Shown here: piece after piece, positions 4,279 to 4,626 of the stretch
How the letters are laid out: each line of letters starts with the position of its first letter
How positions within the stretch are numbered: the first letter of the stretch is position 1
IMG/VR virus record: IMGVR_UViG_2718217789_000006
Length of the DNA stretch: 64,000 nucleotides
Reading direction: 5' to 3' (one strand)
Source of the DNA: a virus
Taxonomy: Duplodnaviria; Heunggongvirae; Uroviricota; Caudoviricetes
The notes under the pieces: model-generated
Told to the model about the DNA's origin: nothing
Seen by the model: the letters and a program-made list of their open reading frames with translations, nothing else
Database searches by the model: none
Translations under genes and position numbers: made by a program

Positions 4279-4626
4279 GTGATGAAGAAAAAATACGAAC
4301 TGGTTGTTAAAGGGATAAATAATTACCCGGATAAGATTACTGTTACTGTGGCACCGGAAATTGGTGGGTATCCGTCACTGTTGTTGCCAGATGTGGCGAT
4401 TAGTCTTGACCGTACTGAAGGTGCCACGCTGGAGTTTTACGAAGCTGAGGCGAAAAAGCAGGCGAAGCAGTTTTTCATGGATGTTGCTGCCGGGTTATGT
4501 GAAGGGGATGGTCCGTTACCGGAAAAGCGTCCCGTAATTTTAGAGGCGCAGGATGTGTTGATAACCTACAGAGGAAAACTACCGGGAATAATTACGGGTT
4601 CTCTGAAGACTCCACCGCTGGCCTGA
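4279..4626 (+). CDS. Hypothetical 115-aa protein inserted between holin and endolysin
   Basis: GTG-ATG start 2 nt after holin stop; no TM or signal peptide by eye; absent from the prophage-2 cassette, where holin and endolysin are 4 nt apart. Confidence 0.55.
   Translation: MMKKKYELVVKGINNYPDKITVTVAPEIGGYPSLLLPDVAISLDRTEGATLEFYEAEAKKQAKQFFMDVAAGLCEGDGPLPEKRPVILEAQDVLITYRGKLPGIITGSLKTPPLA

Follow-up and report, generated by a model that had tools for sequence, protein, structure and literature searches.

The closest described relative of the gene examined here is ydfR of the Qin prophage of Escherichia coli K-12 (b1555, P76160), which encodes a protein of the Pfam family DUF1327 and is located 4 nt downstream of essQ, the gene for a P21-type holin, and immediately upstream of the lysozyme gene rrrQ. 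K-12 YdfR was recovered in a two-hybrid screen as a binder of the N-terminal half of RNase E, for which residues 1-72 were sufficient, and both Rne 1-598 and DNase-resistant nucleic acid were found to co-purify with it, a contaminating RNA binder not being excluded by the authors; its overexpression changed few transcripts, and almost no ydfR reads were seen in K-12 (Göpel et al., RNA Biol 2026, PMC13232886). This was the only functional study found in the literature on WP_000731259, 'YdfR family' or DUF1327. A similar arrangement was found in a 64,000-nt stretch of Caudoviricetes DNA (IMG/VR record IMGVR_UViG_2718217789_000006), referred to below as the window, where an open reading frame (ORF) runs uninterrupted on the + strand from a GTG at 4279 or an ATG at 4282 to 4626, between the holin and lysozyme genes of prophage 1. 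It is near certain that this ORF is a real, conserved late gene for a soluble YdfR-family protein, and the balance of evidence is towards a passenger gene carried in the lysis cassette rather than a factor dedicated to lysis.

The product of the ORF, which had not been recognised in an earlier note made from the nucleotide sequence, matched the Pfam DUF1327 model (PF07041) over residues 2-113 with 155.2 bits (cut-off 25; E 5.5e-46) and the PHROGs family phrog_406 (E 3.8e-64), far above chance. Many E. coli O157:H7 chromosomes carry the 1,401-nt stretch covering the holin gene (S), ydfR and the endolysin gene (R) with 100% identity; in these the coding sequence is annotated by the Prokaryotic Genome Annotation Pipeline as WP_000731259.1, 'YdfR family protein', and the family is annotated in thousands of genomes. 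The profile score, the identity to the RefSeq-named protein and the synteny with the type member all place the gene in YdfR/DUF1327, a family already known, and the gene itself was already annotated (Pfam family, PHROG and RefSeq name). NCBIfam contained no model matching the ORF, and Pfam, PHROGs and NCBIfam returned no lysis regulator or lysis-category family, only DUF1327 and families of unknown function. Sequence searches of the PDB with two family profiles gave coiled-coil noise and an eL18 fragment only.

Residues 1-74 of K-12 YdfR, which include the portion reported to interact with RNase E, share 46% identity with the window protein over the beta3-alpha domain, and both proteins are predicted to be soluble. 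However, K-12 YdfR is a protein of 103 amino acids (aa) with an unrelated helical C-terminal tail, and its stop codon overlaps the rrrQ start, whereas the window protein includes a 'RPVILEAQDVLITYRGKLPG' middle module and its gene is separated from R by a 50-nt spacer. The features of the prophage 1 cassette, and the cassette of prophage 2 with which it was compared, are as follows.

3989-4025, + strand: terminator-like hairpin and T-run just 5' of the holin gene (11-pair stem with 7 GC pairs, then TTTTTGTTTT)
4071-4277, + strand: S, 68-aa class II (P21-type, pinholin family) holin (PF04971, E 7.3e-33; phrog_9876/phrog_20 holin; RefSeq 'class II holin family protein')
4267-4274, + strand: Shine-Dalgarno (SD)-like GGGGAGAG within the final holin codons, 7 nt 5' of ATG 4282, part of the conserved junction
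4282-4626, + strand: ydfR-family gene, 114 aa and stop (115 aa if translated from the in-frame GTG at 4279)
4627-4676, + strand: 50-nt spacer from the ydfR stop to the endolysin start, with no evident SD before ATG 4677
4677-5210, + strand: R, 177-aa phage lysozyme with a signal-anchor-release (SAR)-like N-terminus (PF00959; phrog_7 endolysin; RefSeq 'lysozyme')
52983-53727, + strand: comparison cassette of prophage 2, with the holin gene at 52983-53189, the endolysin gene at 53194-53727 and no ydfR

An extra ORF of 115 aa between the holin and endolysin genes of prophage 1 had been reported in the earlier note. The ORF is present and its frame is intact to 4626, but its start is likely to be ATG 4282 rather than GTG 4279. 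As this ATG is invariant in ~90 related loci, always 4 nt past the holin stop, and the in-frame GTG 3 nt 5' of it occurs in a minority of those alleles, most of which have GCG, the true product most likely consists of the 114 aa annotated in RefSeq. The order S-ydfR-R and the junction GGAGAGTAA-NNNN-ATG were kept in all of the ~90 loci compared, and the 4-nt distance from holin stop to start codon is compatible with translational coupling, though not proof of it. No sigma-70-like promoter was found on the + strand from 3730 to the endolysin gene, and no terminator was found flanking the ydfR-family ORF. The hairpin at 3989-4025 resembles those that Q-antiterminated late transcription passes, which fits S-ydfR-R being part of the late transcript. 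Downstream, the N-terminus of the lysozyme (LSAAVLALIGAGASAPEIL) is Gly/Ala-rich and weakly hydrophobic (Kyte-Doolittle 1.67) and the protein carries an E-x8-D-x5-T motif, both as expected for a SAR endolysin.

The holin and endolysin of prophage 2 are 94% and 95% identical, respectively, to those of prophage 1, and the holin stop and endolysin start are 4 nt apart with nothing between them, as had been described. It is near certain, then, that a P21-type S/R pair can do without ydfR. The endolysin start in prophage 2 uses the same SD element and 4-nt spacing that serve ydfR in prophage 1, and as judged from this shared context, the ydfR-family gene has taken over the coupled start of the endolysin. 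In prophage 1 the endolysin start is no longer holin-coupled, unlike that in prophage 2. Endolysin dosage may differ between the two cassettes, the start in prophage 1 being uncoupled and having no recognisable SD, and that in prophage 2 having its SD within the 3' end of the holin gene.

The predicted structure of the protein consists of a beta-beta-beta-alpha domain and a tail. In the AlphaFold2 model, made with a divergent alignment, antiparallel strands at residues 5-14, 18-27 and 38-43 are followed by a long helix at 50-73 (pLDDT, the model's per-residue confidence, 78-94), while residues 78-113 had a pLDDT below 50 and are predicted to be disordered. The isoelectric point is 5.1 for the N-terminal domain and 8.4 for the tail. 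The absence of a transmembrane segment or signal peptide, also claimed earlier, was borne out by the hydropathy profile, in which the highest 19-residue Kyte-Doolittle mean is 0.89. Residues R44, E46, G47, Y53, E54, A57, A61, A69 and L72 are conserved across the family; Y53 and E54 are invariant in 25 divergent members, and positions 59, 60 and 62 are often basic. A search for dsrm, the double-stranded RNA-binding domain (dsRBD, an alpha-beta-beta-beta-alpha fold), with Pfam at E up to 10 in 25 family members found none, and the likeness of the modelled DUF1327 fold to dsRBD-like folds, which include HicB-type domains, is a weak structural resemblance. The parts of the gene are given below.

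4282-4503, + strand: DUF1327 core domain, codons 1-74 (from AlphaFold2 and conservation)
4504-4623, + strand: middle module, codons 75-114 (GDGPLPEKRPVILEAQDVLITYRGKLPGIITGSLKTPPLA), basic, predicted to be disordered alone, under purifying selection
4612-4617, + strand: deletion junction, with ~450 nt absent relative to long forms of 176-268 aa (from a two-part alignment)

Both parts of the coding region are under constraint. Pairwise Nei-Gojobori comparison gave a ratio of nonsynonymous to synonymous substitution (dN/dS) of ~0.25 for codons 1-74 (225 pairs with dS > 0.05) and ~0.35 for the middle module (131 pairs); the pairs are not mutually independent, but the direction is clear. These values, together with the 4-nt holin junction that is invariant in ~90 loci, are the grounds for regarding the ORF as a real gene.

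The family is mosaic: the N-terminal domain occurs as several alleles and the middle module as two alternatives, and optional coiled-coil-like C-terminal extensions give forms of 176, 183 and ~268 aa. Window positions 4068-4617 align with the 5' part of the long-form loci, and positions 4612-4760 align with the ~150 nt just upstream of the long-form endolysin gene. From this two-part alignment, the window copy is read as a derivative of the long forms produced by a deletion of ~450 nt, its final codons having been created by the junction, and it includes neither the coiled-coil-like extension nor the convergent small ORF of the long forms. The short forms of 114-116 aa nevertheless make up the most populous clusters, which range in size from hundreds of sequences to more than 1,000, and the 50-nt spacer is present in nearly all short-form loci. 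In some database YdfR entries (P0001, P0002 and P0058) part of the N-terminal domain is tandemly duplicated within the protein, which gives forms of 169-196 aa, and in others YdfR is joined in frame with the holin (P0068, P0010) or an ANT domain (P0040). The duplicated or fused entries are likely to be assembly or frameshift artefacts, or rare rearrangements.

Of 5,426 complete E. coli genomes, at least 2,203 (~40%) contain a copy covering at least 80% of the 1.4-kb query. The family is nonetheless small (at 90% identity it accounts for 256 of 5.8 billion clusters, and it has 102 of 1.84 billion representatives), and a scan of one genome per species recovered it in Escherichia and Shigella only, plus two metagenome-assembled genomes, one labelled Veillonella parvula (L010) and the other Bacillota bacterium (L012). 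Both of the latter carry an Escherichia-type holin-ydfR-lysozyme arrangement and most likely reflect contamination by E. coli prophage contigs during binning. A viral scan with the family alignment found close relatives only. The protein is encoded in phages carrying the Shiga toxin (Stx) types Stx1a and Stx2c and in some Stx2a phages, including H-19B and BP-4795. All Escherichia copies examined are directly 3' of a P21-type holin gene, down to 41% protein identity (mEp460, PhiR42_1, Evi, 2H10 and K-12). However, distant DUF1327-only proteins of 72-76 aa, which are 25-39% identical to the window protein and all recognised by PF07041, are encoded outside lysis cassettes at the following sites.

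Between tail genes M and L (Phage_min_tail, Phage_tail_L): L017 4001-4219, L018, L101 449-667 and L106 511-741
Between tail genes I and J (after Lambda_tail_I): L014 1636-1866 and L102-L104
Between Q and the holin gene: L105 4001-4438, a weaker relative of 145 aa

The M-L, I-J and Q-S sites are classical slots for accessory-gene insertion in lambdoid late operons, and the presence of distant homologues in tail modules argues against a role specific to lysis.

A role in lysis timing or lysis inhibition, or as a cargo gene expressed with the lysis genes, had been proposed in the earlier note. Of these the cargo reading is favoured, as 94-95% identical S/R alleles are directly adjacent to one another without ydfR, distant relatives are found in tail modules, the C-terminal half varies freely by exchange or deletion, and no lysis family was matched. 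The gene would thus be a passenger of the lysis cassette and not a component needed by the pinholin/SAR-endolysin pair. As it holds the SD and 4-nt start context used by the endolysin in cassettes without ydfR, translation of the Q-dependent late transcript would yield a small soluble cytoplasmic protein alongside S. Like the lambdoid morons (lambda bor and lom, and stx in the Q-S region), ydfR shows presence/absence polymorphism and occupies late-operon gene junctions, and its relatives are found in several classical moron slots. However, a classical moron is an autonomous transcription unit, whereas no promoter or terminator of its own was found for ydfR, whose insertion falls exactly at the S-R translational junction.

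With regard to activity, none of the tools assigned a function, and the K-12 Qin orthologue provides the one lead based on evidence. It suggests that late in infection the beta-beta-beta-alpha domain may bind RNA and/or host RNase E, in the latter case through its N-terminal (catalytic and membrane-targeting) half, and that this binding could modulate RNA processing or decay. Taken alone, binding of RNase E or RNA by the DUF1327 domain is possible, but we would put it clearly below an even chance. The combined statement, that ydfR is an optional, moron-like accessory late gene embedded in the operon as a passenger with RNase E/RNA binding as its likely activity, is our tentative preference and falls only a little short of even.

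Phage modulators of host RNase E include the T7 gp0.7 kinase, phiKZ Dip and T4 Srd, which act on the C-terminal scaffold/degradosome or by other mechanisms. If the K-12 result carries over, YdfR would resemble them in that RNase E would be the target of a phage protein in the lytic cycle. YdfR is not known to have a sequence or fold relationship to any of the three, and the reported binding of K-12 YdfR was to the N-terminal half of RNase E.

A small ORF in the opposite orientation, converging on the DUF1327 gene, follows all of the non-truncated DUF1327 genes examined. It encodes 70-104 aa (184 aa in L105) and was seen in S-R cassettes (Evi, 2H10, L084 and L091) as well as in tail modules. 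At least six unrelated PHROG families, all of unknown function, are represented among the partner ORFs (phrog_25324, 10490, 2572, 18136, 1853 and 5483), and the type of partner co-varies with the type of C-terminal extension of YdfR. They are located as follows.

L004 2744-3040, L005 3000-3266, L084 3964-4227 and L091 4317-4631, all - strand
L014 1879-2160, L015 693-992, L016 335-616 and L101 696-1001, all - strand
L102 1374-1610, L106 754-966 and L105 4488-5042, all - strand

The window copy, K-12 Qin and mEp460 have no partner ORF, and a remnant of the long-form convergent ORF was sought in the window but none was found. This suggests that the DUF1327 gene and the convergent ORF form a two-gene cassette and that the window copy has lost its partner.

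The best-surviving alternative starts from this pairing. Under it, ydfR would be the remaining half of a DUF1327 and convergent ORF module unrelated to lysis or RNase E, carried as cargo for the lysogen or for conflict between phages or with phage defence, with anti-defence, exclusion or stress tolerance as the functions envisaged. The presence of a convergent ORF, drawn from several unrelated families, after each non-truncated DUF1327 gene examined, the position of DUF1327 genes in typical moron slots and the narrow, mosaic, fast-evolving nature of the family are consistent with such a role, as is a K-12 overexpression screen in which ydfR was among the genes that raised the streptomycin minimum inhibitory concentration, by 3-fold (PMC12924614). 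However, PADLOC found no defence-system match, giving nothing for the long YdfR forms or the partner ORFs and, for the window protein, a single partial match to PDC-M35B (12.9 bits, E 0.02). The gene has no promoter of its own and the late transcript is silent in the lysogen, where almost no ydfR reads are seen in K-12, and the window copy, though it has no partner ORF, is of the commonest form and is still constrained. We therefore consider conflict cargo doubtful, and continue to prefer the operon-embedded passenger with a possible RNase E/RNA-binding activity.

A further alternative is that ydfR regulates lysis timing: its soluble cytoplasmic product, synthesised in parallel with the pinholin, would delay or sharpen triggering, either by binding the charged cytoplasmic C-terminus of S, as T4 RIII does for holin T, or by uncoupling endolysin translation from S. 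Small extra genes co-expressed amid holin and endolysin genes are known in the T4 RIII cytoplasmic antiholin, P1 LydB and the Mu gp25 'releasin' (PMC9239132, PMC9025707). In contrast to these, with which it has no homology, the window ydfR is dispensable in near-identical cassettes and has relatives outside lysis cassettes. The strict conservation of the S-R position and of the invariant 4-nt junction in all Escherichia loci examined, to 41% protein identity, would suit a timing factor, as would the loss of the coupled start and of an evident SD by the downstream endolysin, and the absence from the holin of the window lineage of the upstream start of the dual-start motif. The ydfR deletion was also listed in a chlorophenol red-beta-D-galactopyranoside (CPRG) envelope-leakiness screen of Keio mutants (supplement of PMC3879167), for which a polar effect on rrrQ is the obvious alternative explanation. 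However, the same observations that favour a passenger, namely the near-identical S/R pair without ydfR in the same genome, the family members in tail modules far from any holin and the freely exchanged or deleted C-terminal half, weigh against timing. The family protein also has no membrane segment and no similarity to known lysis regulators or PHROG 'lysis' families, and most ydfR-bearing cassettes retain the dual-start motif, so that the two are not complementary. Regulation of lysis timing is therefore unlikely, and somewhat more so than conflict cargo.

The remaining alternative, a decaying and functionless truncated leftover wedged between two selected genes, would agree with the origin by deletion without the C-terminal module, the predicted disorder of the final 40 residues and the many frameshifted or fused database variants, but is very improbable given a dN/dS of 0.25-0.35 that includes the tail, the conserved start context and the standing of the intact 114-116-aa form as the most populous cluster type.

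With respect to the holin start, the prophage 1 holin has a single start, the upstream ATG of the dual-start motif having been replaced by ATA in this lineage (ATA CAT CAG ATG at window positions 4059-4073, and ATG AAC CAG ATG at 52971-52985 in prophage 2). The single-start form was found in 17 of the ~90 related loci and showed no correlation with the presence of ydfR. The idea that ydfR replaces the antiholin start of the holin was considered and rejected, given the retention of the dual start in most cassettes that carry the gene.

As a sequence feature the gene is ordinary, belonging to a named family present in ~40% of complete E. coli genomes including K-12, and what interest remains concerns the function of the family and the fact that ydfR shares a transcript with stx and the lysis genes. 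This is the case in Stx1 and Stx2c phages and in some Stx2a phages, where toxin release would be affected if YdfR modulated RNase E or lysis timing. A more far-reaching proposal is that DUF1327, put by lambdoid phages into their late operons and normally paired with a small hypervariable convergent gene, is a dsRBD-like module in degenerate form that binds RNA/RNase E, and that in Shiga-toxin and related prophages the copy at the holin stop tunes the decay or processing of the late transcript. This is speculative and, in our estimate, quite unlikely. If true, such tuning of the stx, lysis and morphogenesis transcript would set the amount of toxin and the lysis clock, and the S-R position would be a dosage device tying YdfR synthesis to holin synthesis. 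For the design of experiments, it is useful that the short form is a deletion derivative, that distant homologues are found in tail modules and that full-length forms have a convergent partner.

The region 5' of the cassette includes two tRNA genes, at 442-517 (ARAGORN anticodon CAT, Met; tRNA-Ile according to RefSeq) and 618-694 (tRNA-Arg, TCT), and a SASA-family esterase gene (NanS-p-like; 2157-3623) that precedes the holin gene. Stx phages typically show this layout next to stx, although stx itself is absent here. For prophage 2, collinearity of the window with strain MB41-1 was considered and rejected, as the predicted position is the mar region and the strain from which the window derives is arranged differently. 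Prophage 1 has a second insertion in its lysis cassette, a 189-aa antirepressor-like gene (5482-6051; P22_AR_N and ORF11CD3 domains, phrog_524 'Ant') between the endolysin gene and the Rz spanin gene (6194-6667). Prophage 2 does not have this gene, and its Rz homologue starts from ~54026, soon after R.
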